64,000 bases of DNA from Promethearchaeota archaeon. Its GTDB lineage: Archaea; Asgardarchaeota; Lokiarchaeia; Sigyniarchaeales; SOKP01. The stretch lies in the NCBI GenBank assembly GCA_048941265.1, contig JBHLNT010000002.1:20087-84086 (forward strand), read 5' to 3'. The notes under the pieces were generated by a model. The model made no database searches and was not told where the DNA came from. It was given only the letters and a program-made list of their open reading frames with translations. Both the position numbers and the translations under genes were made by a program. Shown here piece by piece: positions 32,129-63,977 of the stretch (position 1 is the first letter of the stretch; every line of letters starts with the position of its first letter).

Positions 32129-32130
32129 CT

Positions 32131-34627: not shown

Positions 34628-34686
34628 TCCTAAAGTTCCGACACTTTCTTTTAGACTTTTTTCTTTTGAAATATTAGAACACCCTT

Positions 34687-35007: not shown

Positions 35008-35318
35008 TAAAAATCATATCCCATTTTTTTTGTAATAAGTTCTGCTAAATTATCTTTACTATTTTGATAATTTAAATCAATCTTTTTTATTGCTTCACTG
35101 AATTTTTTCTCAAACTTTTCAATATAATCATTAATTTCTTTTGAAACATCTTTTATAACCGAATTTACAAATTCATTTTTTTTTTCAAGTGTTGATTTTA
35201 AATCGTTTTCTAATTGTTCTTCTATCGATTGAATATCAGTAGAACTCTCTTCTTTTGCTTTATTAATTAAATTTTCATAAACTTTTTCTATATCACTTAA
35301 CATTTCGAAAAGATTCAT
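35007..35318 (-). CDS. A/V-type ATPase subunit H (G), peripheral stalk
   Basis: 103-aa all-helical coiled-coil protein within the ATPase operon; start/stop overlap with subunit F. Confidence 0.7.
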   Translation of the reverse strand: MNLFEMLSDIEKVYENLINKAKEESSTDIQSIEEQLENDLKSTLEKKNEFVNSVIKDVSKEINDYIEKFEKKFSEAIKKIDLNYQNSKDNLAELITKKMGYDF

Positions 35319-35359
35319 GGAGCATCGTTTCTTTTTTATAATTATATTAATTTTGTAAT

Positions 35360-36403
35360 TTACTCTAAAACACTAAATTTTTCATGAATAATTCTTACTA
35401 CATTTGGTATAATTTCATATTTAATTTCAAGTTCTTTTCTAATTATCAGTTCTAAAATTCTAAAAATTGTTAAATCATCAATATCTTGTATTTGATATCT
35501 AGACTTACTAAAAAAATAATCTTTATATATCCTTTCGAGTTTCCACATCGGACGATCTGATTCAAGGATTTGAAGGCCTTCCAGGTCTGTAATCCTTCCT
35601 AAAGTATCATTAATATATGAAAAAAAATCTTCTAAACTCTCTCGAGTTAAAAGAAACTCCATTTTTTTATCATTGAAGAAAAAATACTTATTGATTAAGA
35701 ATTGAGATAACAAATTTTTGTCTATATTATTTTTAATTCCACGATAAATTAAGTTTATATTATAAATTTCAGTAATGAATGAATCAAATAATGAAATAAT
35801 CCTTTTTTCGTTTTGATCATATGATCCTTCTCTGTTAACCAAATTTAGATAATATTGTTGATCTAAGAACGATTCTAGTACGAATACTTCATTGTAATTT
35901 TTAAAATAAAGTAGACCTTCTCGTATAGCTTTATAATATCTGGTACCCTTCATATATAATTGAATCTGTTCTAATGTTGGAATCTCAATTAAATCTTTTA
36001 TAAAATCTGTTTTTTCTAAATATTCTTCAACTAAAAAATTTACATTTCGTAGTATTTCTTCATGACTCATATTAACAATAAAACCTAAAATGATCTGTTT
36101 AATATTCATAATTTCATATTTCAGTAAATAGTCTTTTAAAAAATTTCTCATATTTAATGGAGAAAACGAAATAATTTTTCCATTTACCTTGATAAAAAAG
36201 TCATATAGTGCTAGCTCGATATTTTCAATAGTATATTCTTTAATATTTAAATCAGGATAAAAGGGTTTTATAAATTCTATAAAATCTTCTATTGTGTAAT
36301 AGTTCCCCAATTTTTTTAGTTGATCTTCATCCATTAATAATTTTTTTAAGTAGGTTGACCTGATAAATGTATACGCATAAGTCGGTACAACAACACTCGT
36401 TAA
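35360..36403 (-). CDS. atpC: A/V-type ATPase subunit C (d / AC39 family)
   Basis: KYEIMNIK, LESFLDQQYY and EIYNINLIYRG repeats. The open in-frame region upstream of ATG at 36334 encodes YAYTFIRS.YLKKLL, resembling the family N-terminus, behind an AGGTGA SD. Confidence 0.85.
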   Translation of the reverse strand, partial: LTSVVVPTYAYTFIRSTYLKKLLMDEDQLKKLGNYYTIEDFIEFIKPFYPDLNIKEYTIENIELALYDFFIKVNGKIISFSPLNMRNFLKDYLLKYEIMNIKQIILGFIVNMSHEEILRNVNFLVEEYLEKTDFIKDLIEIPTLEQIQLYMKGTRYYKAIREGLLYFKNYNEVFVLESFLDQQYYLNLVNREGSYDQNEKRIISLFDSFITEIYNINLIYRGIKNNIDKNLLSQFLINKYFFFNDKKMEFLLTRESLEDFFSYINDTLGRITDLEGLQILESDRPMWKLERIYKDYFFSKSRYQIQDIDDLTIFRILELIIRKELEIKYEIIPNVVRIIHEKFSVLE

Positions 36404-36451
36404 ATAATCACCTAAAACCTCAAAAATTTTGCAATAAATATTAAAACTCCA

Positions 36452-36835
36452 TTAAGCTGGAATATTTGGGATTTTCGTCCACAAGAGTATTGCAATGATC
36501 AGCCCGTAGACAGCAAGAGCTTCACATAAAGCTACAACTAAAAAAGCTTTAAAAAAAGCTTCTTCTCTTTCAGTCAATGTTGCTATCGCAGAGGTGCCAA
36601 CTGTTCTTAAAGCCAAACCACTTCCTAGTATACCCAAGCCTACTGCTATTCCTGCACCTAAACCAAGCATTCCTGCTGTTCCGGCTTGATAATACTTTAA
36701 ATTATCTGAGCTTGTACCCTGAGCTGCCGCAAAAATGATGATTCCGTTGACAGTGAAAAATACAACCGCAATTAAAAATAATTGGTAAAATACAAGTAAT
36801 GAATAAAATTTTTTTTTACCATTCATAAGTATCAT
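36452..36835 (-). CDS. atpK: A/V-type ATPase proteolipid subunit K (c): single hairpin plus N-terminal hydrophobic leader
   Basis: GAGIAVGLG..GSG helix and ALCEALAVYGLIIAILL with the carrier Glu. Confidence 0.93.
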   Translation of the reverse strand: MILMNGKKKFYSLLVFYQLFLIAVVFFTVNGIIIFAAAQGTSSDNLKYYQAGTAGMLGLGAGIAVGLGILGSGLALRTVGTSAIATLTEREEAFFKAFLVVALCEALAVYGLIIAILLWTKIPNIPA

Positions 36836-48916: not shown

Positions 48917-50311
48917 TCATACCTGATTTGATAAATTAGTTATTAATCCCTCAAGTTCTTTTACCATATCTTTTGCGGCTTCAACATCTTCAGATTCAGC
49001 CGACAATAAAACCGCGTTTCTGTAGAGGGATAATTTAACATTTATAGAAACATTTTTCTCATCATCAATTATTTTTAGTTCGTTAATGATGTCGTGGTAC
49101 TTATACCCATTTAATTCGATTGTTTTTCTTAATTCATTATGAAAGGTTTCAATTACTTCCGGTAAAAGAGGAATAGTTTTATTTACTTTAATACCTTTAG
49201 GAAACCCCCTAGTTAAAGAACTTAGGAGATCGTCTTGAGAAGTCATTATTTCAAGCAGTTTTAATAAAATAAAATTACCATCTGAGAATGGCGCATAATA
49301 TGGAAAATAGAATTTTAAAGTATCAGCGGCTGCAAAACATGCCCTTTCTTCTCTAATGTGTCTCGAGATCTCTCCAGGATAATTTTCAACCTCCTTTATG
49401 GGATATCCAGCCTCCTCCAAAAATTCTTTCACGATTAGAGATGTAGAAGGAGTGGTAATAATGGTATTTCCTTTAGAATTGACAATTCTTTCTTCATAAC
49501 TTACAAAAAGCATTAGTATATCTTCAAAATTAATTTCCAATCCATTTTCATCAATTATTAAAATTCGTGAACCATCAACATCAAAACAAACACCTAAATG
49601 ACTATTAGATGCTTTCACTATATCTGCACAATTCCTAATGGTATTAATATTTGGCACCGGATTTCTTGATCTGTCCCGAAAATGAGTATTAAGCGCGATC
49701 ACTTCTACTCCAATCTCATTGAGTAGGATGGGTGATATCTTACCACTAGGTCCGTACGAGCAGTCTGCAACAATTTTAAGATCTGCTTTTTTAATTTTTT
49801 TTTTATCAACAAATTGTTGTAAAGATTTAATATAAATCTCTTCTGTTTGTGGAATACCAGTTATATGCCCAATTTCATTGGGCTCGACCCTTCTCACTTG
49901 TTTAGGATAAGTATTGAAAGAATCTATTAACTTTTCTATTTCTGCTGGTGATAATTCAATTCCTCCAGCATCAACAAATCGAATCCCAACCTCATCGCTG
50001 TATAAATGGCCTCCTGAAAAGTACACTCCACCACTAGCCCCAAATCTTCTAATAGTGAACTGCAACAGAGGATAAGTACAATCGGAAAGATTTAATAAAT
50101 TGACTCCAGTACTCATGATTCCTGAAGTATACCCACGCTTCAACATACGACTATCATTATGATAATCTCTACCCATTACGATTGATTCATTTTGATTAAA
50201 CGTACTACCATGAATTGATCCGATAGATGAGGAAATCTCTGGAGTAAAAACATAATTTGCTCGTCCTATAATTCGCCCACTTTTGTACAGCTCTCGAAGA
50301 TTTTGCACCAT
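48917..50311 (-). CDS. Phosphomannomutase-like protein lacking the catalytic phosphoserine
   Basis: PMM fold markers (GRD...SRMLK, ADCSYG, FDVDGSR); YFSGGHLY stands where active enzymes have TASHNP. Confidence 0.8.
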   Translation of the reverse strand: MVQNLRELYKSGRIIGRANYVFTPEISSSIGSIHGSTFNQNESIVMGRDYHNDSRMLKRGYTSGIMSTGVNLLNLSDCTYPLLQFTIRRFGASGGVYFSGGHLYSDEVGIRFVDAGGIELSPAEIEKLIDSFNTYPKQVRRVEPNEIGHITGIPQTEEIYIKSLQQFVDKKKIKKADLKIVADCSYGPSGKISPILLNEIGVEVIALNTHFRDRSRNPVPNINTIRNCADIVKASNSHLGVCFDVDGSRILIIDENGLEINFEDILMLFVSYEERIVNSKGNTIITTPSTSLIVKEFLEEAGYPIKEVENYPGEISRHIREERACFAAADTLKFYFPYYAPFSDGNFILLKLLEIMTSQDDLLSSLTRGFPKGIKVNKTIPLLPEVIETFHNELRKTIELNGYKYHDIINELKIIDDEKNVSINVKLSLYRNAVLLSAESEDVEAAKDMVKELEGLITNLSNQV

Positions 50312-50520
50312 TTAAATCAATAACTTTAATTTTTATAATTAATACTTGCTTTAAATTGGAAAATATATATTACATACCTCAATCAGCATATTTATTTTTT
50401 ATTATTATTAAAAGTTTAGTTATGATAAACTCTACTTATCATATGTAAAATTATTTTAGGAAAACAATCATTTAATTCTGTAATCAATTTGATCATATTA
50501 AAAATAGCTTTATACACTTG

Positions 50521-52242
50521 ATGAAAATGACTGAAAAATTAGGCTCTTTTGCGCTTGTTTTACATTCTCATTTACCATGGGTTCTTAATCATGGAGTTTG
50601 GCCTCATGGAACCTCTTGGGTGAATGAGGCTGCCTCAGAAACTTATATTCCACTTCTTCAAGAATTATATAAACTTGTAGATGATGGATACCATCCAAAA
50701 ATGACTCTTGGACTTACACCTGTTTTATGTGAGATGCTTAGGCACCCTTCATTTATTAATGACTTTTTAGGATACTTAGATGAAAAAATTGGAGCAGCAC
50801 TCCATGATAAGGAAGATTTTACAGAAAATAAGTATGAGGAAGGTCGAATAAAATTAACTAAATGGTGGGAAGAATTCTATGAAAGAGTTAAGGATGATTT
50901 CACGCATAGATTTAATAAGGATATTATAGGTGCGTTTAAAAAACTGCAAGATATGGATTTACTTGATATCATTACTAGTGGTGCTACTCATGGTTATAAT
51001 CCATTACTTTCTAAAGATAGTTCTATTAATGCCCAATTTAAAACTGCTGTGGATAATTATAAAAGACATTTTGGAAGAGAACCAACAGGAGTTTGGCTCC
51101 CAGAATGTGCGTATCGTCCCGGGTATAAATGGAAGAATCCTATAACGGGAGAAGAATATAATCGTCCTGGAATTGAGTTCTTTTTAGCTAATAATGGGTT
51201 GAGATATTTCTTTATTGATACGGCATTATTATTAGGAGGAAAGTCTCAAGGAGTTTACGCGGCCAGATTTCCCCTCCTTAAACAGTTATGGAAGCAATTT
51301 GCAGATCAATATGAAGAAATTCCCACTTCTTTCGAGAAATCCCAATATGAGGCTTATTTGGTATCAACTGATCCCTCAACTCCAGCCCCTGTAGGTTTCT
51401 TTACCCGAGATGAAAAAACGGGTATTGTGGTTTGGTCAGGAGAACATGGATATCCGGGTTGTGCAGAATATCTTGATTTTCATAAGAAGCACTATCCTGG
51501 GGGTTTGCGCTATTGGAAAGTTACAGGCCCTAAGATTGATTTAGGAAAGAAAATGCTTTACTGGCCCGATGATGTTCCAGGAAAATTAGATGAAAATGCG
51601 GGGCACTATGTTAATTTAATAAAAGACATCTTAAGAGCCCATAAAGGTGATTCTGGAAATTCTGGAATTGTTGTTGCTCCTTATGACTGTGAATTATTAG
51701 GTCATTGGTGGTTTGAGGGAAATTGGTGGTTAGCAAGAGTATTTCGTTGGATTGAAGATGATCCTGAAGTAGAATTGACACACACAAGATCATACATGGA
51801 ACAAAATCCTCCAAATAAAGTGGTATCTATTATTGAGGGAAGTTGGGGTCAAGGATCAAGCCATTGGGTTTGGTTGAATGAATGGACAATTTGGACATGG
51901 GAAAAAGTCTACGAATGTGAGGCAAAAAGTGAAGAAATTATCTCAAAATATAAAGATTCACATGATCCAAATCTTATAAAAATTTTAAGACAAATGGCAA
52001 GAGAATTGCTCTTATTGGAAAGTTCGGACTGGCAATTTTTAATAACAACTTGGTCAGCAAGAGATTATGCTGAAAATCGAGTAGCAGCGCATTATGAAAA
52101 CTTTAATAGACTTTATAAAATGGTAGAAGAATATGCCAATGGAAAATATGTTGAAGAAGGCGAATGGCATTTTCTAGGGACTCTTGAATACTCTGATGGT
52201 TTATTTGAAGCTCTTGACCTTGAACCGTTTGCAAAAAAATAA
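50521..52242 (+). CDS. GH57 1,4-alpha-glucan branching enzyme
   Basis: LHSHLPWV, ETYIPL, ATHGY, WLPECAY (nucleophile Glu), PYDCELLGHWWFEG (acid/base Asp), GSWG and ESSDWQF. Confidence 0.93.
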   Translation: MKMTEKLGSFALVLHSHLPWVLNHGVWPHGTSWVNEAASETYIPLLQELYKLVDDGYHPKMTLGLTPVLCEMLRHPSFINDFLGYLDEKIGAALHDKEDFTENKYEEGRIKLTKWWEEFYERVKDDFTHRFNKDIIGAFKKLQDMDLLDIITSGATHGYNPLLSKDSSINAQFKTAVDNYKRHFGREPTGVWLPECAYRPGYKWKNPITGEEYNRPGIEFFLANNGLRYFFIDTALLLGGKSQGVYAARFPLLKQLWKQFADQYEEIPTSFEKSQYEAYLVSTDPSTPAPVGFFTRDEKTGIVVWSGEHGYPGCAEYLDFHKKHYPGGLRYWKVTGPKIDLGKKMLYWPDDVPGKLDENAGHYVNLIKDILRAHKGDSGNSGIVVAPYDCELLGHWWFEGNWWLARVFRWIEDDPEVELTHTRSYMEQNPPNKVVSIIEGSWGQGSSHWVWLNEWTIWTWEKVYECEAKSEEIISKYKDSHDPNLIKILRQMARELLLLESSDWQFLITTWSARDYAENRVAAHYENFNRLYKMVEEYANGKYVEEGEWHFLGTLEYSDGLFEALDLEPFAKK

Positions 52243-52269: not shown

Positions 52270-53421
52270 TTATATTTGTTGTCCTAATTCAAGCGTTTTA
52301 TCCTTAATTTGCGAATCGCTACTTATTTTACAAAAAGGAGCAACAATTGCTTTATTTAATACGACATTGTCACCTAATTCACAATCGTTACAAATAATCG
52401 ACTCTGTAATGTGGCATCCATGCCCTATCTTAACATTGTCCCACACAACAGATTTTTCAATTACAGTGTCCTCTCCTATTACTACATGATTCCCAATTGA
52501 AGTTAATTCTTTAATTTTTACGAAATTCTCAAGTCTAACATTTTTTCCAAAACAAGTTGGTTTCTCGATTTTTATATCTTGACCTGAATCAATGATGCCC
52601 ATAACAAAAATACCATCATATTCTTGGCCGTTTGGTGTAATAGGCCAACTGTATTTTCTTAATAAATCCCAATTTGCCCACATATAAGTTTGAGCATTTC
52701 CGCAATCAAGCCAGTAATAATCTTTTACATATCCATATAGATTATAGTCATTTTCAAGAAGATATGGAAAAATTTCCCCTCCAAAATCCATTAGTCCCGT
52801 CTCCCGTAATACGTTAGCGATTTCCTTTTTAAAACAGTAAATTCCCGTATTGATGATATTGGTATGAAGAAATAAATCTGTTCTTTGAGCCATACTACTT
52901 AAATATAATTCCATAGGCATCGGTTTTTCTAAAAATAGATAAATTTTACGATCATTATCTAATAAAACCACTCCATATTGAGTTGTATGGCTTTCTACGG
53001 TTTTCATAGAAATTGTAGCAATCCCTCCCTTCATAGAATGAAAATCCATGAAATTTTTCACTGGAAGATTCGTAACAATATCTGCCATTGAAACAACAAT
53101 TTTTTCCGAGTCAATTTGGTCCAATAATAATCTATACGCATCAGCAGTTCCTTTACTTTCATGAATTTCACATTCTAACTCCACATCTCCCAATTTATCC
53201 CGAGTCCACGTTTTCTCAACGTATTCCTTTAACATATCCCCCATATAAGCTAATGCTAAAATGATATGCTTAATATCTGCATATATAAGATGAGCTATAG
53301 AATAATCTACCATAGGTTTATTGGTTACCTTGACAAGTGGTTTTGGAATTTGAGCAGTTAAGGGCATTAAACGAGAACCTTTACCACCAGCCAAAATTAT
53401 TGCAGACCATTCTCTCGTCAT
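52270..53421 (-). CDS. NDP-sugar synthase (mannose/glucose-1-phosphate nucleotidyltransferase) with a left-handed beta-helix
   Basis: LAGGKGSRLMPLT..PKPL, KGTADA, YGVV, FLEKP, INTGIY, DFG.EIFP, YWLDCG and hexapeptide repeats. Confidence 0.9.
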   Translation of the reverse strand: MTREWSAIILAGGKGSRLMPLTAQIPKPLVKVTNKPMVDYSIAHLIYADIKHIILALAYMGDMLKEYVEKTWTRDKLGDVELECEIHESKGTADAYRLLLDQIDSEKIVVSMADIVTNLPVKNFMDFHSMKGGIATISMKTVESHTTQYGVVLLDNDRKIYLFLEKPMPMELYLSSMAQRTDLFLHTNIINTGIYCFKKEIANVLRETGLMDFGGEIFPYLLENDYNLYGYVKDYYWLDCGNAQTYMWANWDLLRKYSWPITPNGQEYDGIFVMGIIDSGQDIKIEKPTCFGKNVRLENFVKIKELTSIGNHVVIGEDTVIEKSVVWDNVKIGHGCHITESIICNDCELGDNVVLNKAIVAPFCKISSDSQIKDKTLELGQQI

Positions 53422-53643: not shown

Positions 53644-54909
53644 TCAATGTGTAATTCCTTGTCTAATTTCTGCTGCAGCTTCATGAGGTAACTTCCTCGC
53701 AACACGCATATCATCAGCCATTTCTGCTCCTCCTATTATTTCATGTGGAATAATATCACCAAACATATGAAAATCTGCATCATAGCCATAAGGGCAACAA
53801 TTCAATAATATATTTCGATTTTTATCGATATTTATATTATCTAAACCTATGAAGATTGTTTTTAGGGATTTTGCTAAATCCTGAATTTGATTTATGTTTA
53901 ATTGAGAAAATCTTCTTATATGTTCGTTAGGGTGGAATCGTATATGATAATTTCTAACAGGACTTCCGGTTGTATAAAAAGTCCAGTAGGTTGTTTTTAA
54001 TATAATTCGGTCAGTTTCTCCGTGAGATGTTTCACATAAATGACAATTATCCCCCATTTCTTTAAAAGCTTGAAGATAACCTTCCAATCGACTTCCATGC
54101 CCATCCATATTTAAATCGATATAAACTTGGCCATGAATTCGAGGTTGTGAGCCCCCTACTTTTGTACCTATATTAAAAAAGGGAGAAACTGGAATATCAT
54201 AATAATCTCTCTCTATTGCCTCCTGAACACTATATAGAATTGCTGCCTTCATAGAAAGGAATATACCTGCTAAAACATCATCAGGAATTAATTTGAAACA
54301 AAAAGTTGGATAGAAATCCCTGGAAAGAGAAACTAAATTTATACCTTTTGCCAATTTTAAATGAGAGGGTAATTTTTCAACCACAGTATCATAAATTTCG
54401 GGGTCAATAATCCGAGCCATAGAAGGATATCGATTTATTAAAGTTATTGCTTTACATGAATCAGGCAATCTCTCTATTCTATGTGGTTTATCTGAGAAAG
54501 GAGAATCTCTTCTCTTTTCATCCTCCGTTATAATTATTGTAAACCCATCTCCTATTTTTTTTCCATCATCATACAAGGGTTTACCTTCTGTAACTGCTGT
54601 AAATACATCTTTAGCTTCTTCTAATATCTGTTTTGTACAATCAATATCTTCACTCTTCTTATCTAAAATTTTAAATCCTTCTGGTCTTCGACCCCGAATA
54701 GGACTTAAATATGCATAATGCCCATAATATCTTACTCGATCTTCTCGAAGTCCAAACTCTTTTGTTCGAATAGCGCGTATTGATAGGGGATCCCATCTCT
54801 TAATTGGAAGCTCATAAGTGGTTTTAAATGTATCTTTCGCAATAATGCCCCATTCCATAAATTTTGGAATATAATTTTCTTCTCTATTTCCTTCTTTTTT
54901 ATTTGATAT
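53644..54909 (-). CDS. GalT/HIT-superfamily nucleotidyltransferase-like protein (paralogue 1)
   Basis: SP.RG.RP, INRYP, FFN.G...GGSQPRIHGQ and CHLC. Start extended from ATG at 54858 to ATA at 54909 by homology to paralogue 2. Confidence 0.8.
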   Translation of the reverse strand: MSNKKEGNREENYIPKFMEWGIIAKDTFKTTYELPIKRWDPLSIRAIRTKEFGLREDRVRYYGHYAYLSPIRGRRPEGFKILDKKSEDIDCTKQILEEAKDVFTAVTEGKPLYDDGKKIGDGFTIIITEDEKRRDSPFSDKPHRIERLPDSCKAITLINRYPSMARIIDPEIYDTVVEKLPSHLKLAKGINLVSLSRDFYPTFCFKLIPDDVLAGIFLSMKAAILYSVQEAIERDYYDIPVSPFFNIGTKVGGSQPRIHGQVYIDLNMDGHGSRLEGYLQAFKEMGDNCHLCETSHGETDRIILKTTYWTFYTTGSPVRNYHIRFHPNEHIRRFSQLNINQIQDLAKSLKTIFIGLDNINIDKNRNILLNCCPYGYDADFHMFGDIIPHEIIGGAEMADDMRVARKLPHEAAAEIRQGITH

Positions 54910-55080: not shown

Positions 55081-56364
55081 TTAAGAAATCAATTTCCTTA
55101 TTTCTGCTGCGACATGTTCGGGCATTTTTCTGGCAACTCTCATATCATCTGCCATTTCAGCCCCACCTATGATTTCATGAGGTATTATATCCCCAAACAA
55201 GTGAAAATCTGCGTCATAACCGTATGGACAACAATTAAATATAATATTACGATTCTCGTCGACATTTAAATCATCTAATGCCTTAAAAATTATTTTTAGG
55301 GATTTGGCTAAATCTTGCATTTGATTAATTTTAAGCTGTGAAAATCTTCGTATATGTTCATTTGGGTGTAATCTGAGATGATAATTTCTTACTGGACTTC
55401 CTGCGACGTAAAAGGTCCAGAATCTGGTTTCTAAGACTATTCTATTCGATTCTCCATGAGTAGTCTCGCATAAATGGCAAGAATCTCCCATTTCTTTAAA
55501 TGCTCTTAAAAATCCTTCTAATCGTGAACCATGTCCGTCCCCATTTAAATCTACATAAACTTGACTATGAATCCGTGGTTGCGAGCCCCCAACTTTGGAA
55601 CCGATATTAAAAAATGGTGAAATTGGAATGTCATAATAATCTCTCTCGACTGCCTCAAGAATACTATATAGAATTGCCTCTTTCATTGAGAGAAAAATAG
55701 CCGTTAGAACTTCTTCAGGAATAAAATCAAATCTTAAAGAAGGGTAAAAATCTCTAGAAACTGTGACTAAATTTATGCCCTCTGCGAGTTTAGAACCCGT
55801 AGGTAACTGTTTTTCTATTAATTGTTTTATATCACGATCCACTATTCGGGCCATTGCTGGATATCTGTTTATCAGAGTGATCGCTTTACAGGAATCGGGA
55901 ATTCTTTTTATTCTATGGGGGGTTTCATGAAATGGTTTATCCCGTTTTTTTTCATCTTCAGTAATAATGATCGTAAATCCATCCCCAATTAGAGCACCTT
56001 CATCATTATAAATGGGTTTACCTTCCATAACGGCCGTGAATACATCCATATCTTCTTTAAATTCTTTTATAGAGATTGCTTTAATTTCACTCTTTTTTTC
56101 TCTAAGATTATAACCTATGGGACGCTTACCGCGAATAGGAGAAAGATAAGCGTAATGGCCGTAATGTCTATCTTGCTTCTTATGCAATCCAAATTCATTT
56201 GTTGAGATCATGGCAGTTGATAATGGGTCCCATCTTTTTAATGGGACATCGTGAATTGATTTAAAATTTTCCTTAGTAATGATTCCCCATTCCATAAATT
56301 TTGGCTTATAACTTTTTCCTAAATTACTATCTTCTTTCTCTGAAATAAAAACACATTCCTCCAT
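55081..56364 (-). CDS. GalT/HIT-superfamily nucleotidyltransferase-like protein (paralogue 2)
   Basis: Same motifs (GGSQPRIHSQ, CHLC, GGAEMAD) with long identical blocks to paralogue 1; probable start is ATT at 56346. Confidence 0.8.
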   Translation of the reverse strand: MEECVFISEKEDSNLGKSYKPKFMEWGIITKENFKSIHDVPLKRWDPLSTAMISTNEFGLHKKQDRHYGHYAYLSPIRGKRPIGYNLREKKSEIKAISIKEFKEDMDVFTAVMEGKPIYNDEGALIGDGFTIIITEDEKKRDKPFHETPHRIKRIPDSCKAITLINRYPAMARIVDRDIKQLIEKQLPTGSKLAEGINLVTVSRDFYPSLRFDFIPEEVLTAIFLSMKEAILYSILEAVERDYYDIPISPFFNIGSKVGGSQPRIHSQVYVDLNGDGHGSRLEGFLRAFKEMGDSCHLCETTHGESNRIVLETRFWTFYVAGSPVRNYHLRLHPNEHIRRFSQLKINQMQDLAKSLKIIFKALDDLNVDENRNIIFNCCPYGYDADFHLFGDIIPHEIIGGAEMADDMRVARKMPEHVAAEIRKLIS

Positions 56365-56387: not shown

Positions 56388-57269
56388 TTATTGAGATTTT
56401 ATTAATTTAACATCCATCTCAATTATACCGTTAACTTTGTATAAATCTTCAATTAGGCTATTCAACATATCTATATCAATGTCTAAATATACTTCATATA
56501 TGCACTTATCAACTTCTTGGCAAATTCCCGTAGTGAATACTAACTTTAAATTATCTTCATATTTAGATAATATTTTTGAAATTTCTTGCAAAACACTGAC
56601 GGTCATTTGTTCTCCAAACATTATGATTAAATTAAAAATTTCATCCGTTTCAACAGGGATGACATCTAATTTCAAAGCTTCTCCACGCGTTCTAAACACT
56701 AAAAAACAATGTTTCTTATTCTCAGTCAATTTACTTAACTTTTGAATCACATCGTTAGATAATTCAATATTTTTAGTTTTTTTTAATTTTGATAAAGAGA
56801 TAAGCTGCCCCTCAGTTTCGATTTTTTTTATTATTAATATCTTGTATAAATTATTAAGCTCTTCTTTTAGTAATGTAAATTTGTTCTGGATCTCTTTTTT
56901 ATTCATCTTTATAGAATCGGAATTAATATAAAATGCCTTGTAAAGTTCGGGAATATTTTTCAATTTTTCTACAAACTTTGAAAGAATGAGTTCATATGCA
57001 GAATAATCAGGTTCTTCTTCTGAAACAATTAAGGAGATCATAGCAGATTCAGAACGGCCACGTGCCCATTTTGAGTCTAAATTAAAAGCCCAATTCGCAG
57101 TCTTAAAATCAGAAGAAAAATTGTGAGTGAAAAATCCTGTGGATTCAGATTCCATTAATGATTTGATTTGATTAATATAATCATCCTCCAAACTTTTAAT
57201 TAAATTCTGAGGATTTGTTAGAAATACTTTAGGACCTAAGATTCTGTCAAAATAGCTAAGAACTAACAT
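56388..57269 (-). CDS. Longin/uDENN (folliculin/SMCR8/NPRL2-like) domain fused to a C-terminal ACT-like domain
   Basis: N-terminal LSYFDRILGPKV and FNLDSKWARGRSESAMISLIV; the C-terminal ~80 aa follow a beta-alpha-beta-beta-alpha-beta pattern ending L..L..V.GII.MDV. Confidence 0.65.
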   Translation of the reverse strand: MLVLSYFDRILGPKVFLTNPQNLIKSLEDDYINQIKSLMESESTGFFTHNFSSDFKTANWAFNLDSKWARGRSESAMISLIVSEEEPDYSAYELILSKFVEKLKNIPELYKAFYINSDSIKMNKKEIQNKFTLLKEELNNLYKILIIKKIETEGQLISLSKLKKTKNIELSNDVIQKLSKLTENKKHCFLVFRTRGEALKLDVIPVETDEIFNLIIMFGEQMTVSVLQEISKILSKYEDNLKLVFTTGICQEVDKCIYEVYLDIDIDMLNSLIEDLYKVNGIIEMDVKLIKSQ

Positions 57270-57686
57270 ATACCTATATAAAATTTTAACTTCTGTGGCT
57301 TAATTTGTTAACTATGTATAAGAATTAATTTAGTAATTGTATTTAATAAATCTTATATTTATATTTTTAACACGAATGAAATTAAAAATAAATTTCCCTT
57401 TTTTCACAGGAGAATGAAATAAATCATTGAACAAAAAGTATATCTTGAACAATTTATAGTAAATCTTATTTATATTATAATTATTGTTTAACGGTTTTAT
57501 TTAATCGAGTGACAATTTTTTTTATTCCTAATAAATTCAGAAAAAAATTTTTCCATTATATTTAAAAGAAAAAATGTGCTTAAATTTGAGGTTTAGAGTG
57601 TTTTTCAAAAAATTAACACTTTAATAGTGGCACTTAAATACGTATTAAGATTCTTTGGTAAATCTGTAAATAATTTTAAAAAGATC

Positions 57687-57732
57687 TTTTAATCGGTTGA
57701 TATTAACCCATTAAAAAAACAAGATTTATATA
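57687..57732 (+). promoter_or_regulatory. Inverted repeat (putative operator) next to a BRE/TATA element
   Basis: TTTTAAT-C-GGTT-GATATT-AACC-C-ATTAAAA at 57687-57716, then an A-rich BRE-like stretch and TTTATATA at 57725-57732. Confidence 0.5.
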
Positions 57733-57772
57733 TTATTTCATAATAAAATATATTATAAAAAAAAAGTGATAA

Positions 57773-57987
57773 GGCGACTGAATTAGTCAATTGCAACAAT
57801 ATTTGACCCCGATAGTTATATTTAGGATACTTTCAAATATATCTATGGGGAAGAGTTGGAATTTTTCGAATCCGTACTAATTGTTGCGATTTCAAATTAA
57901 ACGTTGCTAATATAAAAAAATCAATAATGATGAGATATATCAATCTGGTAAATGCATTGAAATTTTCATCCAAGATTGTAATATCTC
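57773..57987 (+). ncRNA. Putative structured 5' leader or small RNA upstream of the RHH gene
   Basis: 12-bp stem 57789-57800/57880-57891, nested CCCC-G-AUAG/CUAU-GGGG and UAUAUUU/AAAUAUA stems, and a second hairpin GAGAUAU..CAAUCUGG/CC.AGAUUG..AUAUCUC at 57932-57987. Confidence 0.5.
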
Positions 57988-58018
57988 TAACAATATTTAT
58001 ATAAAAGGGGTAATAATA

Positions 58019-58309
58019 ATGAAAATAGTCACTGTTAATGTGCCAGAATCATACATCGACGCTATAAATAAATTAATTGGTGAAAATGGTCTCTATCCAT
58101 CCAGATCTGAATTAATTCGATGTGCTGTTAGAGAATTTCTTTTAAAGGAATTAAGATTGGCGAAAAACATACCAGACTACAATAAATCTGATATTGATGA
58201 TTATGATAAGGAAAAATTTGTTCGTGTTCCCATAGTCGATTCAGAAAATAAAAAGGCTCCTGTACAAGAATTCAAAACATATAAAATAATCAAAAGACTC
58301 GAATTTTAA
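58019..58309 (+). CDS. Ribbon-helix-helix (CopG/MetJ/Arc; CdrS-like) transcriptional regulator
   Basis: MKIVTVNVP beta-ribbon and G.YPSRSELIR.AVREFL. Confidence 0.9.
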   Translation: MKIVTVNVPESYIDAINKLIGENGLYPSRSELIRCAVREFLLKELRLAKNIPDYNKSDIDDYDKEKFVRVPIVDSENKKAPVQEFKTYKIIKRLEF

Positions 58310-58443
58310 AAAGAAATTCTCGATTTTTACTTATTTTTTTTTTATTTTTCATAAACTTAACCGAATTCTTATTCAATTAAATTTTTATATACTATTCTTT
58401 GATATATTTATAACACATAATAAATATTAAGTTATAGTCGATA

Positions 58444-59847
58444 ATGAGCGAACAAAATTTAATTGAAGCATTCATGAATGAACTTCAATTTGATGTAAGT
58501 GACTATTTGGATTCAGAGTTATCCGATTACCAGAAAAAATTAGTTGAAGACGCTACTTTTATAATGCAAGATAATATCGTGGGTGATATCAAAAAATTAG
58601 GGGGGAATTTCCAAAAAAACAGAGAAAAATTTGACAATTTCTTAAAACGAGCTGAAACCGCAATTAAAAATGAGAAATTTAAGGATTCTGAAAAGGAATT
58701 AAAGCAATTTCTTAAAGATTACTCTAAAAAGCTGCAAGAACTTATTGATAAAACTTGTGTTGCTGTAATTCCTGTAAAAGAGCTACCCTGGGTTGATGTA
58801 TTATTTAGAAGTGTTCCTCGCATAGTATTGGATAATAAAAAAATTGAATTACTTGATAATGCAATCGCCTATTATGGGGAAATTAAGTGTGTAATCTCAA
58901 GAACTACTATCTATGGAAAAATTAAGGATGAAAAACCTTTATTTGCACCTTTAATGGGAGAATTAGAATTACAGGGATATAAAATAGATGATTCTCAGCA
59001 AGACAAACCAAAATCTCTTATTTATCTCTATATAAATGCAATTATAGAATCACTCGACTCTTCTTCAACACGGAGCCAATTGGCGAAATACCATGAAGGA
59101 TATCAACGACATGGAGAACCCATATGTGATTTCTTGATGAATGAAACAGAACTCTTAGAGACCATGGAAAAAATTCAAACTGGGTTAGACTCTGGTCGCA
59201 TTAAATCTGACATTTCAGTATGCGGAATTGCTATACCTTTTCCCTCAGATAACACTAGTCTTATAGTACTTTTAGACGAAAGCAAAGATTCAAAAAAATT
59301 TGGAAATTGTTTTGAGGGATTATTAAGATTTTCTGCCGCTTGTTGTAAAGCTCCCTCCACAGGTATAGGAGCAGGCGTAGAAAAACCAGGTCAAGTATCT
59401 CAACAACAATCCGGAGTAATAAGAACTCCTGGTGGCCAAGAATTAAAAGTCTGGACCGCAGAAGAATTGGCAGAAGAAGCTAGTAAAAGAGGAGGAGGAA
59501 TATCGCCAGATATGGATGTTTGGTCTCCGGAAGATTTACAAAAATTAGCTGAAGAGAGGGGGAGTGGGATACCTGAGGGTATGGAAGTGTGGACTCAAGA
59601 AGAATTGACGGAGTTGGCTAAAAAAAGACAAGGAGGCCTAGATATTCCAGAATGGAAACCGGATGATGACTTGATAGAATGTGTGAAGTGTGGTTACAGT
59701 TTAAGAAAAGGATGGTCTGAATGCCCTATTTGTGAGACTCCTGTAGGATCTCAAGGTACTACTGAATCTATCCCAACTTCAGAACCAGAGCCAGATGAAT
59801 CGAATTCTAAAGATCATATCTCAAATGAGAATTCAGAAAATGAATAA
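58444..59847 (+). CDS. Hypothetical protein with three 23-aa tandem repeats and a C-terminal zinc ribbon
   Basis: VW[TS]xE[ED]L..A..R.GG repeats, CVKCG...CPICE and an acidic tail. Confidence 0.8.
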   Translation: MSEQNLIEAFMNELQFDVSDYLDSELSDYQKKLVEDATFIMQDNIVGDIKKLGGNFQKNREKFDNFLKRAETAIKNEKFKDSEKELKQFLKDYSKKLQELIDKTCVAVIPVKELPWVDVLFRSVPRIVLDNKKIELLDNAIAYYGEIKCVISRTTIYGKIKDEKPLFAPLMGELELQGYKIDDSQQDKPKSLIYLYINAIIESLDSSSTRSQLAKYHEGYQRHGEPICDFLMNETELLETMEKIQTGLDSGRIKSDISVCGIAIPFPSDNTSLIVLLDESKDSKKFGNCFEGLLRFSAACCKAPSTGIGAGVEKPGQVSQQQSGVIRTPGGQELKVWTAEELAEEASKRGGGISPDMDVWSPEDLQKLAEERGSGIPEGMEVWTQEELTELAKKRQGGLDIPEWKPDDDLIECVKCGYSLRKGWSECPICETPVGSQGTTESIPTSEPEPDESNSKDHISNENSENE

Positions 59848-60007
59848 CATTAAGAATTTCTAAAAATTTGATTTATATTTAAGTAAATTTGTACGAAAAC
59901 TTTAAATCAAAAGAAGTTCATAAAGATTTGAATTTTACGAGTAATTCACAACTTTTTTTAATAAAATATTATTACCAAACTTAAAGAATAATATCTTTGG
60001 AATACCT

Positions 60008-61042
60008 TTGTTAACTAATATATTTCTCTTCATAGGAAAAAATTTTCAAGACCTAAATCAGCTTAACATTTATGGGTATCCAAATGATATTATCAATTTT
60101 GATGATAAAGATACAATTAGCAAAGTGATTTATGGACATGATCATGGGGATTTAGTCTCGAATTCTAAAATTCTTAATTCTCAATTTTCACCTTCAAGAG
60201 ACCTTAGCAATGTTGAGGGGCTATACTTGATTGACAATCCCATACCCCAAATAATTGATGGTTTAAACATTTACACATCGTGTATTAATGGAAAAATTAT
60301 CATCGGATTAGTATTTGATAAAGAAGATAACCCATATGACTATAAAGATATTTTTAATGAACTTTTAGATGAGCTTTTAAATGTTGAGAAATCTTGTGCT
60401 TTTGAGGATGAGATAGAAATTGAAAACTTTTTAATTACGATTTTTATAGATATCAGAAGATTTGGAGATGAGCAAGTAGAAAGACGTCCTCAAATTGAAT
60501 TTCGATATCAGGAATCCTTTATAAAAGTATTTTTATTTGGAATTGATGATGTGGGAAAATCCTCGTTAGTAAGAAGAATCAAAACAGGTGAATTTAATGA
60601 TAACTACTTCATGCCCACTAAAAAATTCTCTATTGATTATGTTCAAGCTGAAGAAAAAGGATTCTTGGCTTTTTGGGATATGCCTGGACAACGTTCATTT
60701 CGGAAGAAGTGGCTTATTGGCCTCCAAGATTCTAACATCGTAATTTATATGATTGATGTGGCAAATCAAAGAAGGTTTGAAGAATCAAAAAAAGAATTTT
60801 GGAAAATAATAAATAGGTATGATTTACTCGGAATTCCTGTGTTGATATTGGCAAACAAGATTGATTTAATTCAACATTCAGATGAAATTACGAAAGAACA
60901 ATCTGAAAAATTAAAGAATGAAATTATCACTTACTTTGAATTTGATAAAATTCAAAATAGAGAATGGAAATTTCTTTTTACATCCGTCAAGACGAAATTT
61001 AATATCGAGACAGTTATGAAAGAAATATTTGACTTAATATAA
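60008..61042 (+). CDS. Ras-superfamily small GTPase (Arf/Rag-like) with an N-terminal ~170-aa extra domain (longin/roadblock-like)
   Basis: G1 GIDDVGKS, G2 MPT, G3 WDMPGQ, G4 NKID and G5 TSVK; TTG start. Confidence 0.88.
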   Translation: MLTNIFLFIGKNFQDLNQLNIYGYPNDIINFDDKDTISKVIYGHDHGDLVSNSKILNSQFSPSRDLSNVEGLYLIDNPIPQIIDGLNIYTSCINGKIIIGLVFDKEDNPYDYKDIFNELLDELLNVEKSCAFEDEIEIENFLITIFIDIRRFGDEQVERRPQIEFRYQESFIKVFLFGIDDVGKSSLVRRIKTGEFNDNYFMPTKKFSIDYVQAEEKGFLAFWDMPGQRSFRKKWLIGLQDSNIVIYMIDVANQRRFEESKKEFWKIINRYDLLGIPVLILANKIDLIQHSDEITKEQSEKLKNEIITYFEFDKIQNREWKFLFTSVKTKFNIETVMKEIFDLI

Positions 61043-61131
61043 TTTCTGATCAAATTTTTTTTTTAAACAAATTTTAAATAATTAATGAGATAAATAATAT
61101 TTATTAAAGATATTGAGAGATTCGTTTAATT

Positions 61132-61731
61132 ATGTCTAAGAGATTTAAAAAAACTAAACATGATGATCAAATCATCATTGATGAAAAAAAAGGGCAATTA
61201 TATATTGGAACTAAAGATTTACGGCTCGTTATGTTTCGTCCTATTGATATAATAGAATTTACCGAATTTGCTGGAACCAATGCTGAAGATATCATATTAT
61301 GGGTTGGAAAGACCATCGCAAAATATTTTATCGAAAAATTATTTCCCGGAGAAAACCTTAGCAATGAAGATTTATTGACCAAAAAAGAAGTTGTTTTAAG
61401 TGTTCTTGAAACGTTTGAACATTTAGGCTATGGAGTCCTAAATGCTATATTTAGAGAAAAGGAAGTATATATTCATGTTCATGATCCAGTAATTGCAGAT
61501 GAAAAAGAAAACGTAATGGCTAAAAACGTATGTATTCTTTATCAAGGTATCTTTAGTGGATTACTAGAACAATTAGAAATTGACGTAGAAGGCGAAGAAA
61601 TTGAATGTGCCCTTTTAGGGGGTGAGCACTGTATTTTTAAATACTCTCTTCTGACAGGAGAATTTGGAGCTGAAATTATCGATCCGTTAGAAAGTGAAGG
61701 GGCTATCGTTGATTTCCTAAAAGGCGTTTAA
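61132..61731 (+). CDS. V4R-domain protein (TRAPP/Bet3-related fold)
   Basis: LGYG, NVCILYQGIFSG and EEIECALLGGEHCIF Zn-site pattern. Confidence 0.85.
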   Translation: MSKRFKKTKHDDQIIIDEKKGQLYIGTKDLRLVMFRPIDIIEFTEFAGTNAEDIILWVGKTIAKYFIEKLFPGENLSNEDLLTKKEVVLSVLETFEHLGYGVLNAIFREKEVYIHVHDPVIADEKENVMAKNVCILYQGIFSGLLEQLEIDVEGEEIECALLGGEHCIFKYSLLTGEFGAEIIDPLESEGAIVDFLKGV

Positions 61732-61946
61732 ATTTAATAGGGCTCATATTTCTATATTTCAGATTTTATTAATAAAAATTAGACCTATATTAATAATCAT
61801 TAAATTTAAAAGACTATAGACAGCTTTTACATAAATTAGTACATATAATCGTATTTTAGTTTATTTCTTATAAGCGAAGATATGTAATCTTTAAATAGGA
61901 TTTGAATTTTATAAAAATCATATTTCAAAAATATGTGATTCCAAAT

Positions 61947-63374
61947 ATGACACAAGATAAAGAGGAAGCAATTTCAATAAAATTAGGAAAAGAACAATTA
62001 ATGAAAAAAAGAGTTATTTATGTTGGCGATCGTGTTGCTTTCGGTGTTGTTTTTTCATTTCTAGTCCTTTTCGGCTATATATCGCTTGTTTATCGCAGAA
62101 ATGATATTATAATGATGAATCCGTGGTTCTTTTTGTTTTTAATAATTTTAGGCTTTTTATTTTTTCTTTGGTATGTGTTAACAAATGATGAATTTTATTT
62201 TTCTGAACACATATTTCTTAATTCTAACTTTATTTATGTACAGTTAATATGGATTTGTTGGATGAGTGTGGTAACAAGCTTTTTTGCCCTTTTCTACGGG
62301 TGGCAACACGTTATAGAAATCACAGTGCTTTATTTACTTATGTACATAGTCGGTTACATCTCGGGACGCTTTCTTTGGTTGAATTGGGATAAATTGGGAA
62401 AAAATTCAAAAATTTATTTAATATTTTTCTTAGTTATAGCAGTGTTGATTACAACGATAATTGTTGGCTCAATTTTTCTCAATGCCGGTAATTTACGGAT
62501 GTGCATATTTGTATATCTTTTTGGTATCGGGAGTTTAGGTTCTATGGGCCTAAATGCATTTATGCTGTACTTATATTATGACAAGAGTGGAAATGATGTG
62601 CTCGAGGATCCCCCTAGTTTGCTTGTTATCATCGGTATCATAAATACTCTTATTATTAGTTTTATAGTTTGGTTAATTATGGTCATTTTTATACCATTCA
62701 TACCAGGATCTAAACGAGGCAGCAGAAAAAAAGGAGGAAGTAGTTATCATAAAAAAGGCTCATCATCTGGAGGAAGATTTCCTAGAATTTATCGTACAAG
62801 AAGATATTACTTTTTTGGTCCTAAAATTGAGGAAGAACGCCCTTCAGTTGATCATTATTGGCAAATTGCTATGGGAATCATCGGAACCGAAATTACATAT
62901 AAAAAAGCTGAGGTAGATGAGGCCAAGAATAAAATAATTGATTTATTATATGAAGAAGAAATTATCCCTTCCCAAAAAGACCTCCAAAATATATCAAAAA
63001 TAAATCCCCCTCTCATTGATTTTGCTTTAGATGAGTTAATAAAGGAAAACAAGATCAAATACACTCGACAAACTGCCTCACATTGGTGGACTAAAGGTTA
63101 TAGTCTGACAGTATACTATTACAATAAATTAATTGAGCAAAGAGGGTTAGTCGATAAAGAAAAACTAGAAAAGGATTTCGATAAAAAAGTCGAAATTTTT
63201 CTGAAAGTTGTGAAAGAGAGAGAACCAATTAAAACTAGATACCAACTTTGGGATTTAGCCGTTGATATTGGTTTGAGTCCTAAATGGAAAATCACCCCAA
63301 CATTAAATAAATTAGTAAAACAGAAAAAAATCAAATACTCGCGCAAAATTCCCAAGGGATATTATATTCCGTAA
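61947..63374 (+). CDS. Multi-pass membrane protein with a Gly/Ser/Lys linker and tandem winged-helix-like C-terminal domains
   Basis: About seven TM segments, linker GSKRGSRKKGGSS, then two L..L....I.Y...KGY units (FALDELIKENKIKY...KGY and TLNKLVKQKKIKY...KGY); ATG at 61947 preferred. Confidence 0.7.
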   Translation: MTQDKEEAISIKLGKEQLMKKRVIYVGDRVAFGVVFSFLVLFGYISLVYRRNDIIMMNPWFFLFLIILGFLFFLWYVLTNDEFYFSEHIFLNSNFIYVQLIWICWMSVVTSFFALFYGWQHVIEITVLYLLMYIVGYISGRFLWLNWDKLGKNSKIYLIFFLVIAVLITTIIVGSIFLNAGNLRMCIFVYLFGIGSLGSMGLNAFMLYLYYDKSGNDVLEDPPSLLVIIGIINTLIISFIVWLIMVIFIPFIPGSKRGSRKKGGSSYHKKGSSSGGRFPRIYRTRRYYFFGPKIEEERPSVDHYWQIAMGIIGTEITYKKAEVDEAKNKIIDLLYEEEIIPSQKDLQNISKINPPLIDFALDELIKENKIKYTRQTASHWWTKGYSLTVYYYNKLIEQRGLVDKEKLEKDFDKKVEIFLKVVKEREPIKTRYQLWDLAVDIGLSPKWKITPTLNKLVKQKKIKYSRKIPKGYYIP

Positions 63375-63425
63375 TAATTTTTCTCAGAATTATTATTTAA
63401 AATAATAAATTACAGCAGAAATTTA

Positions 63426-63977
63426 TTATTCATTCCAAGAAATATTTAGATTAAACCAAGTGGAGTTAGTATTCTCATCAAATTCATTAGTCATCTTTAA
63501 TTTTAAACATTCAAACTTAATTTCATGATGAATAATAATACCTTGGAAAACTTCGATAAAACTCTTTATCTCCGGATTTGATGACTCCCAATTATGAATT
63601 ACCTCATCAATACATAAAATTCGATCTTGACTCCCCCTTGTATTCCAAATTCCTTGAACTAACATAATCTTAAATTCTTGATTAAGTTCTTCTGGTAATA
63701 GAGCCATCAAAAAGCTTTTAGTAATATCTTTCGTAAAAGGATTAATTGACCTCTCATCGCCTATCCAATTCCTGTCAAGAGATAATGAAGCCTTAATAAT
63801 TTGATCATCTGAAATGTGGAAGAAAATATCAATAAATTGTTGAAATCCTCCCGGTTTTAGTAAAATTAATTTAGAATTCTGAGGAATTTCTTGATAGCTT
63901 CTATTAATCTCGCTTAAATTAAAAAAAGTAAAAAAATCAGTCTCTTTTAATTTTGAATAAATAACTCTTTGGCACAT
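63426..63977 (-). CDS. Hypothetical protein
   Basis: 183-aa ORF with protein-like composition; no recognised motif. Confidence 0.65.
   Translation of the reverse strand: MCQRVIYSKLKETDFFTFFNLSEINRSYQEIPQNSKLILLKPGGFQQFIDIFFHISDDQIIKASLSLDRNWIGDERSINPFTKDITKSFLMALLPEELNQEFKIMLVQGIWNTRGSQDRILCIDEVIHNWESSNPEIKSFIEVFQGIIIHHEIKFECLKLKMTNEFDENTNSTWFNLNISWNE

Follow-up and report, generated by a model that had tools for sequence, protein, structure and literature searches.

A conserved neighbourhood of ORF3, a longin-type/Arf-like GTPase and a V4R protein in a Lokiarchaeia-type Asgard lineage

The genomes of Asgard archaea encode dozens of small GTPases together with dozens of longin, roadblock, and V4R/TRAPPC3-like proteins. 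According to passages of a structural survey (PMC10933270), genome layout rarely tells which regulator pairs with which Asgard GTPase; V4R/TRAPPC3-like proteins are already known in these archaea and, in MK-D1, roadblock/longin domains are fused to 26 of 74 GTPases, and operons joining a GTPase gene to roadblock, longin or TRAPPC3 genes are generally absent. N-terminal domains "such as longin" are ascribed to Asgard Arf-like GTPases in an excerpt of PMC11914678, and excerpts of a preprint by Liu et al. (10.1101/2020.10.19.343400) describe a conserved Asgard operon formed by a LAMTOR1-like roadblock protein, a Rab-like GTPase and a DENN protein, as well as NPRL2-like longin domains fused to varied domains. 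The subject of this report is a three-gene locus in a stretch of 64,000 nucleotides (nt) from a Promethearchaeota archaeon (assembly GCA_048941265.1, contig JBHLNT010000002.1, positions 20,087 to 84,086 of the forward strand), hereafter the window, in which an Arf-like GTPase with a longin-type N-terminal domain is encoded between a protein named here ORF3 and a V4R protein.

The three genes, hereafter the trio, lie on the plus strand and encode ORF3 (58444-59847, 467 amino acids, aa), the GTPase (60008-61042, 344 aa, with a TTG start) and the V4R protein (61132-61731, 199 aa), which starts exactly 89 nt past the GTPase stop codon on the same strand, the distance that an earlier note on this DNA had reported. 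Their components are known from Asgard archaea, but the conserved arrangement is new, and the reading preferred here, that they are a module co-inherited in a Lokiarchaeia-type Asgard lineage whose proteins work together, has in our estimate an even chance of being correct. The earlier note had assigned five open reading frames (ORFs) with their domains to one signalling neighbourhood, adding to the trio the upstream ORF1 and a ribbon-helix-helix (RHH) protein; all five are found in place and none is a chance ORF, each belonging to a conserved protein family. The window segment has a G+C content of 30%, and the nearest relatives of the window proteins come from metagenome-assembled genomes labelled Promethearchaeia or Promethearchaeota, i.e., Loki-type Asgard archaea.

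The comparison is based on 109 relatives of the GTPase from a scan of one genome per species, of which the best 80 were used with flanks of up to 10 kb, giving 81 loci with the window; relatives of the window genes were located by tblastn and the ORFs of all loci were clustered into families. The ORF3 family occurs in 77 of the 81 loci and the V4R family in 76, followed by RHH (69), GalT-like (64), NTP-transferase (61) and ORF1 (12). Adjacency was counted only at loci with enough flank, at least 1750 nt for ORF3 and at least 800 nt for V4R, so that 75 loci are informative for each of the two genes. In all 75 the GTPase is preceded by ORF3, with an inserted gene between them at a single locus (L043), and V4R follows it in the same direction in 72 of 75, which upholds the pairing of GTPase and V4R seen in the window. 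The lack of conservation in relatives, which had been named as the outcome that would overturn the signalling neighbourhood, is thus not observed for ORF3, GTPase and V4R.

The borders of the trio are far more variable than its interior. The left neighbours of ORF3, scored in 74 loci, fall into 7 classes (2-hydroxyacid dehydrogenase in 38, RHH on the minus strand in 21 and on the plus strand in 5, another family in 5, and others), and the right neighbours of V4R into 13, with CdhA on the plus strand in 26 and many singletons; since the neighbours vary in this way, the rearrangement breakpoints fall on the borders of the trio rather than within it. In the 39 loci that hold all six genes compared, the trees of the trio genes are mutually closest, with normalised Robinson-Foulds (RF) distances of 0.28-0.33, against 0.42-0.50 to the NTP-transferase, 0.58-0.64 to the GalT-like and 0.83-0.86 to the CdhA trees. 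Divergence between loci amounts to 15-25% for the neighbouring enzymes and to about 38% for the trio proteins, which evolve about twice as fast and still keep their gene order. Edge breakpoints, the most congruent trees and an order kept despite faster change all count against pure descent as the cause of the synteny.

Taxonomic labels are no guide to the breadth of the sample. Records labelled Thor, Hod, Odin and Hermod are interleaved in this tree with near-identical rows labelled "Promethearchaeota", so the labels clash with the tree; the sister records L005 ("Hod") and L006 ("Thor"), in particular, have terminal branches of 0.012 and 0.034. The phylum names in record titles cannot be used for judging the spread of the module and, because the labels are interleaved, all 80 loci are treated as one lineage of uncertain breadth. 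The window GTPase is 92% identical to that of locus L001.

The GTPase consists of an N-terminal domain of longin-type topology (residues ~1-160) and an Arf-like G domain (170-341). The latter is matched by Pfam Arf PF00025 over residues 170-341 (E 1.6e-27, 96.6 bits against a cut-off of 22.3) and much more weakly by Pfam SRPRB (E 4.6e-7); with the AlphaFold2 model (mean predicted local distance difference test, pLDDT, 78.1), Foldseek finds Arl8b as the best match (E 1e-13, template-modelling score, TM, to target 0.89), then the Asgard HodArfR1 8ouk (E 2.1e-11), and Arl3, Arl8 and HodArfR1 are the nearest solved relatives of the G domain by sequence and fold. The motifs G1 (GxxxxGK[ST]), G3 (DxxGQ), G4 (NKxD) and G5 are intact, with G178, G183, K184, D224, G227, N283, K284, D286, S326 and K328 present in 49 of 49 family members, the switch-I residue T204 in 48 and Q228 in 47 of 49. 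Because every nucleotide-binding and catalytic motif is kept, the G domain is, judged by its residues, a working GTP/GDP switch.

In the predicted structure of the N-terminal domain (AlphaFold2 with DSSP; E, strand; H, helix), the elements E2-9, E20-24, H34-52, E79-83, E86-93, E97-103, H109-126 and H135-157 follow the order beta-beta-alpha-beta-beta-beta-alpha-alpha around a five-stranded sheet, with pLDDT values of 75-90 outside the loop 47-69. The longin arrangement is described, in passages of the structural survey (PMC10933270), as a five-stranded core with no N-terminal helix and an extra C-terminal helix; on the predicted topology and on such published statements about Asgard proteins, the domain can be assigned to the longin type. 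Foldseek with the whole GTPase model gives no longin match, the list being filled by G-domain matches and the N-terminal domain not being searchable alone, and profile-profile comparisons among ORF1, the GTPase, its N-terminal domain and ORF3 show no significant similarity (E 0.06-0.32, probability <1%). In the AlphaFold2 model the N-terminal amphipathic helix of Arf proteins is absent and the folded domain of ~160 residues takes its place; excerpts of PMC11914678 present this helix as the Arf feature for membrane binding and state of the Asgard variants of this kind that "many do not act on a membrane". The start codon of the GTPase is TTG in 76 of 80 loci; conservation of this weak start suggests low or regulated translation.

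The window V4R protein is matched by Pfam V4R PF02830 (E 2.3e-8, 34.4 bits against a cut-off of 31), a profile that matches 48 of 48 members of its family, while MetOD1 matches 41 of 48. V4R is a ligand-binding, Zn-tethered fold, as described in passages of PMC10933270. Of the cysteines, C134 and C159 are kept in all 48 sequences and C167 in 47, whereas a fourth is not conserved; these three residues sit at the position of the V4R metal/pocket site. The family profile finds no TRAPPC3/Bet3 chain among PDB sequences at E<=10 and nothing below E 0.08. A prediction of the GTPase-V4R complex from family alignments gave a score of 0.00 (mark 0.32) and counts neither way.

ORF3 comprises an N-terminal domain (residues ~1-305), a variable linker, 3.5 W-x-x-E-E-L repeats, a Zn ribbon and an acidic tail. 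The tryptophan residues of the repeats (W337, W360, W383 and W404) and the cysteines of the CxxC...CPxC ribbon (C413, C416, C427 and C430) are present in 52 of 52 sequences. In the N-terminal domain (58444-59358), where a motif around YHEGYQRHG-P-C-DF is conserved, C105, C149, H217, H223, C228, C289 and C301 are kept in 47-51 of 52 sequences, a pattern that hints at a possible metal or redox site. This domain is restricted to Asgard archaea, its profile finding only 42 representatives among 1.84 billion. In Pfam, ORF3 has Zn-ribbon matches only, below cut-off; its distant relatives show no Pfam domain besides the Zn ribbon; its profile retrieves only Zn-ribbon-like stretches among PDB sequences (E >= 0.045); and the Atlas search returned no model and no usable feature match. 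No DENN or roadblock family in Pfam matches ORF3 or the V4R protein. A candidate relative of ORF3, P0236, was rejected as an unrelated HhH/SAM repeat protein.

Each gene of the trio is preceded by a conserved AT-rich block. Upstream of the GTPase (59896-59961, plus strand) there are a TATA-like AAAACTTTAAA (59896-59906) and CAACTTTTTTTAA (59949-59961); the corresponding element AAACTTTTTTTAA occurs with at most one mismatch 59-74 nt before the GTPase start codon in 70 of 80 loci, against 163 matches in total in 2.69 Mb on both strands, and is preceded by AAAACTTTAAA at a distance of ~35 nt. The copy upstream of the GTPase is the only close match within the window, where the direct repeat CAAACTT of the consensus is not exact; the element is a candidate promoter with operator, or else a candidate leader element. 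Ahead of ORF3 (58373-58411, plus strand) a BRE/TATA-like TCAATTAAATTTTTATA is followed by TGATATATTTAT, in columns of at least 80% identity across 76 aligned upstream regions, and ahead of V4R (61069-61103, plus strand) an AT-rich block is conserved across 75 aligned GTPase-V4R spacers. The blocks upstream of ORF3 and V4R are unusually strongly conserved for intergenic sequence across loci whose proteins are only ~45-60% identical. Within 60 nt after V4R, runs of five or more T are found in 53 of 76 loci against 17 with runs of five or more A, a strand bias that is not seen between GTPase and V4R (38 against 52 of 76). The trio is probably not a tight operon, and the sequence pattern would fit a promoter for each gene, with transcription of the GTPase possibly running on into V4R; co-transcription of 58444-61731, which had been proposed as a check, becomes doubtful because each of the three genes has a separate conserved promoter-like element.

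If the three proteins work together, the V4R protein may be the input, sensing a small molecule or the redox state. V4R domains elsewhere sense small molecules or redox state. The V4R protein and the fused longin domain, a putative regulator-docking element, would jointly influence which nucleotide state the G domain adopts, and ORF3 may serve as scaffold or effector, reached via its repeat/Zn-ribbon tail; this division of roles is a mechanism that we infer from the domains. A bolder version, to which only a slight probability is assigned, would make the trio a minimal ligand-gated relative of the TRAPP/longin principle of guanine nucleotide exchange factors (GEFs), in which V4R, docked on the longin domain, adjusts the nucleotide state to a metabolite or the redox state and ORF3 is the effector. 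The trio would then preserve a stage at which the Bet3 fold served a longin-GTPase as its sensor of small molecules and had not yet become a passive scaffold subunit, as in eukaryotic TRAPP.

Several observations weigh against the trio as a functional module. At the level of the proteins, no longin, roadblock or DENN family of Pfam matches any of 48 GTPase N-terminal domains, even at E<=10, and the profile of this domain finds nothing below E 1 among PDB sequences; TRAPP PF04051 matches only 3 of 48 V4R members (best E 0.012), which are V4R rather than TRAPP/Bet3 by sequence; and the fold of ORF3 remains unassigned by Pfam, PDB-profile and Atlas searches. At the level of the genes, no V4R is found downstream in 3 of 75 loci (L034, L062 and L049, the last with an EamA transporter gene instead), and the spacers are not operon-tight, with 75-1325 nt (median 174) between ORF3 and GTPase and 53-329 nt (median 146) between GTPase and V4R, each gene having its own conserved promoter-like element. 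The search for V4R fusions (355-2000 aa) gave none at E<=1e-5, which is weak evidence. The RF congruence may in part stem from the higher resolution that trees of fast-evolving proteins have; rate co-variation after removal of the background is modest and uneven (0.43 for GTPase-ORF3, 0.52 for ORF3-V4R and 0.11 for GTPase-V4R), and the correlation of distance matrices (mirror-tree) is suggestive at most, being confounded by shared phylogeny. The sample itself, the best 80 of 109 relatives, is one lineage with inconsistent phylum labels.

A further point concerns the surrounding chromosome. The whole region of ~20 kb is fairly collinear among relatives, in the common order NTP-transferase, GalT-like, RHH, often a dehydrogenase, the trio, CdhA-like, RagA-like GTPase, VWA-RING, MtrH-like and TPR; NTP-transferase, GalT-like, CdhA, RagA-like GTPase, VWA-RING and MtrH-like genes are present in 44-64 of 81 loci. 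Because of this collinearity and of the low divergence of the neighbouring enzymes (only 15-25%), part of the synteny is shared descent. Descent could also account for all of it, in which case a chromosome collinear over tens of kilobases would carry three separately transcribed genes of unrelated functions; about ten further genes recurring in the same order in 44-64 of 81 loci, metabolic neighbours 75-85% identical between loci, a conserved promoter-like element for each trio gene with spacers of 53-329 nt and the negative search for fusion proteins are in line with this explanation. What descent leaves unaccounted for is that breakpoints, insertions and inversions accumulate at both borders of the trio (the 7 and 13 neighbour classes), whereas inside it the exceptions amount to the ORF3-GTPase insertion in 1 of 75 loci and the 3 of 75 without V4R, and that the trio genes, with the trees most congruent with one another, keep their order at a rate of change about twice that of their neighbours. 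Descent alone is therefore considered unlikely, though it is the strongest of the rivals to co-inheritance of a functional module.

Another explanation ties the trio to carbon monoxide dehydrogenase (CODH)/acetyl-CoA metabolism: V4R and the Cys/His residues of ORF3 would form a redox/metal sensor, as in MsvR, and the GTPase would serve in maturation or assembly and not as a switch of the trafficking type. Of the 81 loci, 61 hold a CdhA-like gene (781 aa, Prismane/CODH plus Fer4), which is the immediate right neighbour in 29 (26 on the plus strand, 3 on the minus strand), the Cys/His residues are conserved, and NCBIfam MsvR matches the V4R part weakly (E 1.3e-5, 25 bits against a cut-off of 220). 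However, no CdhA gene follows V4R in the window, the right neighbour is variable, the CdhA trees are the least congruent with those of the trio, and the G domain is Arf-like and not of the CobW/HypB/UreG metallochaperone type (cobW E 0.086 vs Arf 1.6e-27), all of which makes this explanation quite improbable. In most relatives the trio is followed (L053:11988-20034) by the CdhA-like CODH subunit, a small ORF, a RagA/Gtr1-like GTPase (402 aa, opposite strand), VWA-RING, MtrH-like and TPR/SNAP-like genes; the window instead encodes at 61902-63977 a multi-pass membrane protein of 490 aa and a protein of 183 aa, singleton ORFs without relatives in the 80 loci, which suggests a local replacement or rearrangement of its right flank.

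On the other side of the trio lies ORF1 (56388-57269, minus strand, 293 aa), composed of a longin-type N-terminal domain, a helical linker and an ACT-like C-terminal domain. In the AlphaFold2 model (mean pLDDT 87.1), the N-terminal domain (residues ~1-146: E2-8, E12-19, H29-40, E45-52, E55-65, E73-82, H89-104 and H120-146) has the predicted longin-type order beta-beta-alpha-beta-beta-beta-alpha-alpha, and the C-terminal domain (~187-291: E210-218, H224-235, E242-252, E255-263, H266-276 and E282-291) the order beta-alpha-beta-beta-alpha-beta. The isolated C-terminal domain matches in Foldseek, with E 5e-5 to 1e-3 and TM to target 0.74-0.81, the NikR C-domains 3qsi_A (0.81, root-mean-square deviation 2.3) and 3bku_C (0.75), besides the ACT domain of PGDH and AF1403; ACT-type profiles on the ORF1 family stay below cut-off (AsnC_trans_reg in 5, ACT in 3 and NikR_C in 2 of 49). 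The whole model matches a chain of GATOR1-KICSTOR (9v0j_A, 363 residues; E 1.8e-4 over 320 columns, global TM only 0.24-0.29), and an Atlas feature match to a cluster in which 19% of the members carry PF06218 NPR2 (score 0.84) is a lead only. Pfam assigns no family to ORF1, with no DENN, uDENN, longin or NPR2 match, and its profile finds nothing below E 0.08 among PDB sequences. Of the former label "uDENN-like", the longin-type fold has support in the predicted topology, and no DENN family matches. The ORF1 family comprises 79 proteins, all unnamed or "hypothetical". In the fold of its C-terminal domain ORF1 resembles ACT/NikR-C domains, and the GATOR1-KICSTOR and NPR2-cluster matches are weak pointers to NPRL2-type longins, from which ORF1 differs in having no sequence-profile match to NPR2, longin or DENN; a longin-ACT combination of this kind is not described in the literature passages covered.

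Only 12 of 81 loci have ORF1 at this place; they belong to early branches of the midpoint-rooted GTPase tree as well as to the clade of the window itself, a distribution that takes at least 3-5 gains or losses to explain. In 9 of 10 loci with both genes complete, ORF1 is co-directional with the GalT-like gene and 23-82 nt upstream of it (23 nt in the window), the exception being L008 with a fragmented ORF1; because of this spacing on the same strand, ORF1 is best placed with the GalT-like and NTP-transferase genes, and is perhaps a ligand-binding regulatory subunit, or a regulator, of the GalT-like/nucleotidyltransferase genes next to it. The claim that an ACT protein is an input of the GTPase switch accordingly finds no support. 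The five-gene signalling neighbourhood to which this claim belonged, with ACT and V4R as inputs to the GTPase and alpha-glucan/sugar-nucleotide metabolism as output, could appeal to the longin-type and ACT-like domains of ORF1, to its location between the sugar genes and the trio, to GalT-like and NTP-transferase neighbours in 64 and 61 of 81 loci, and to a presence that may be ancestral, since the ORF1 loci include the earliest-branching rows of the midpoint-rooted tree, but it is the least probable of the explanations, given the rarity and the repeated gain or loss of ORF1, its coupling to the GalT-like gene on the strand opposite to the trio, the gap of 749 nt and the RHH gene that part it from the trio in the window, and the unrelated dehydrogenase between the RHH gene and ORF3 in 38 loci.

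The RHH protein (58019-58309, plus strand, 96 aa) is a loosely placed neighbour outside the trio. It is matched by Pfam RHH_1 (E 2e-8, 34.3 bits against a cut-off of 20.5), is 58-93% identical among relatives and has a conserved C-terminal extension. In the 69 loci that contain the gene, the minus strand carries 66 copies and the plus strand 5, at distances of 2.0-6.5 kb from the GTPase; two copies occur in L010 (5732-7783, with a short-chain dehydrogenase gene between them) and in L025 (3451-4580). With strand and distance varying and other genes intervening, the RHH gene is removed from the signalling unit in which it had been included, and a separate conserved transcription factor outside the module is proposed. 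CdrS and aCcr1 are small RHH cell-cycle regulators, as an excerpt of PMC9976878 puts it; the N-terminal ~42 residues of the window protein align to the CdrS model (E 5.3e-9), whereas its scores are far below the curated cut-offs (35.9 vs 100 for CdrS, 18.6 vs 60 for aCcr1) and, unlike in the case of CdrS and aCcr1, no ftsZ or cdv gene is adjacent. The gap 57270-58018 (749 nt) contains no ORF of at least 60 aa.

The sugar genes upstream of ORF1 were assigned with Pfam and NCBIfam: phosphoglucomutase/phosphomannomutase (PGM/PMM; 48917-50311, minus strand), a GH57 branching enzyme (50518-52242, plus strand), a sugar-1-phosphate nucleotidyltransferase (52270-53421, minus strand) and two GalT/HIT-like genes (53644-54858 and 55081-56364, both on the minus strand). 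Across the loci, the GalT-like (64 of 81) and NTP-transferase (61 of 81) genes lie upstream of the trio on the minus strand. The two GalT/HIT-like genes of the window are tandem paralogues, almost all relatives having one (65 members in 64 loci), and the GalT model matches of both are far below cut-off. Only proximity speaks for the proposal that this cluster is a nutrient-state output; the unrelated CdhA-like and MtrH-like genes on the other side of the trio are conserved neighbours too. A second set of sugar genes lies ~40 kb upstream (window 4902-14330), with PGM/PMM, two SIS-domain proteins (one GlmS-like), a second sugar-1-phosphate nucleotidyltransferase and an alpha-amylase-family protein. 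Otherwise the window carries common archaeal housekeeping and metabolic genes (an A/V-type ATP synthase cluster, 2-hydroxyacyl-CoA dehydratase-type genes, GlmS, RadA and sugar enzymes); the ATP synthase cluster (25493-36832) encodes an A-type catalytic subunit with the barrel-sandwich insertion twice (25493-27313 and 32131-33960) and a B-type subunit once (30737-32125). PADLOC defence-system models have no match among 7 proteins, Rfam has none over the whole window, and no tRNA genes were found.

The trio offers concrete candidates for GTPase partners, a sensor-type V4R protein and an uncharacterised Asgard-only ORF3, that can be taken to pull-downs and nucleotide-exchange assays. If the three proteins interact, the combination of longin domain, Bet3 fold and GTPase would bear on the origin of TRAPP and other eukaryotic GEF complexes; otherwise the locus amounts to a well-conserved part of a collinear chromosome.

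In the open full-text literature, a scope outside which most subscription journals and supplements fall, no description of the ORF3-GTPase-V4R trio was found, and the comparison is made here with the systems nearest to its parts. The V4R protein shares with the PoxR-type and MsvR sensors the V4R family and conserved cysteines; unlike them it is a stand-alone protein of 199 aa without a DNA-binding or AAA+ domain, and its conserved cysteines are three against the four of Thor-TRAPPC3 and PoxR, as far as these are described in excerpts. In the signal recognition particle (SRP) receptor, the SRX domain of SR-alpha is longin-like and bound to the Arf-like GTPase SR-beta; as in this pair, a longin-like domain is combined with an Arf-family GTPase in the trio, although here the two are fused in one chain and there is no SRP-receptor context. 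The TRAPP core, with the longin proteins Bet5/Trs23 and Bet3-family proteins on Rab (PMC10933270, in passages), likewise brings together longin-type and Bet3/V4R-superfamily proteins and a small GTPase; unlike TRAPP, the trio has an Arf-like and not a Rab-like GTPase, and contains a single V4R gene and no further subunits. The roadblock/Rab-like/DENN operon (10.1101/2020.10.19.343400, in excerpts) is a conserved Asgard neighbourhood around a small GTPase and candidate regulators, as the trio is, and differs, by its text description, in its members, which in the trio are ORF3, the longin/Arf-like GTPase and V4R. The closest known counterparts of the GTPase itself are AArf/ArfR and the longin/roadblock-fused GTPases of MK-D1 (PMC11914678, PMC10933270 and 10.1101/2020.10.19.343400, all in excerpts), which combine an Arf-like G domain with an N-terminal domain; as in the Asgard Arf-like GTPases with extra domains, a domain of longin topology replaces the amphipathic helix and, in contrast to the published fused GTPases, treated singly in these excerpts, the GTPase of the trio has two fixed neighbours.

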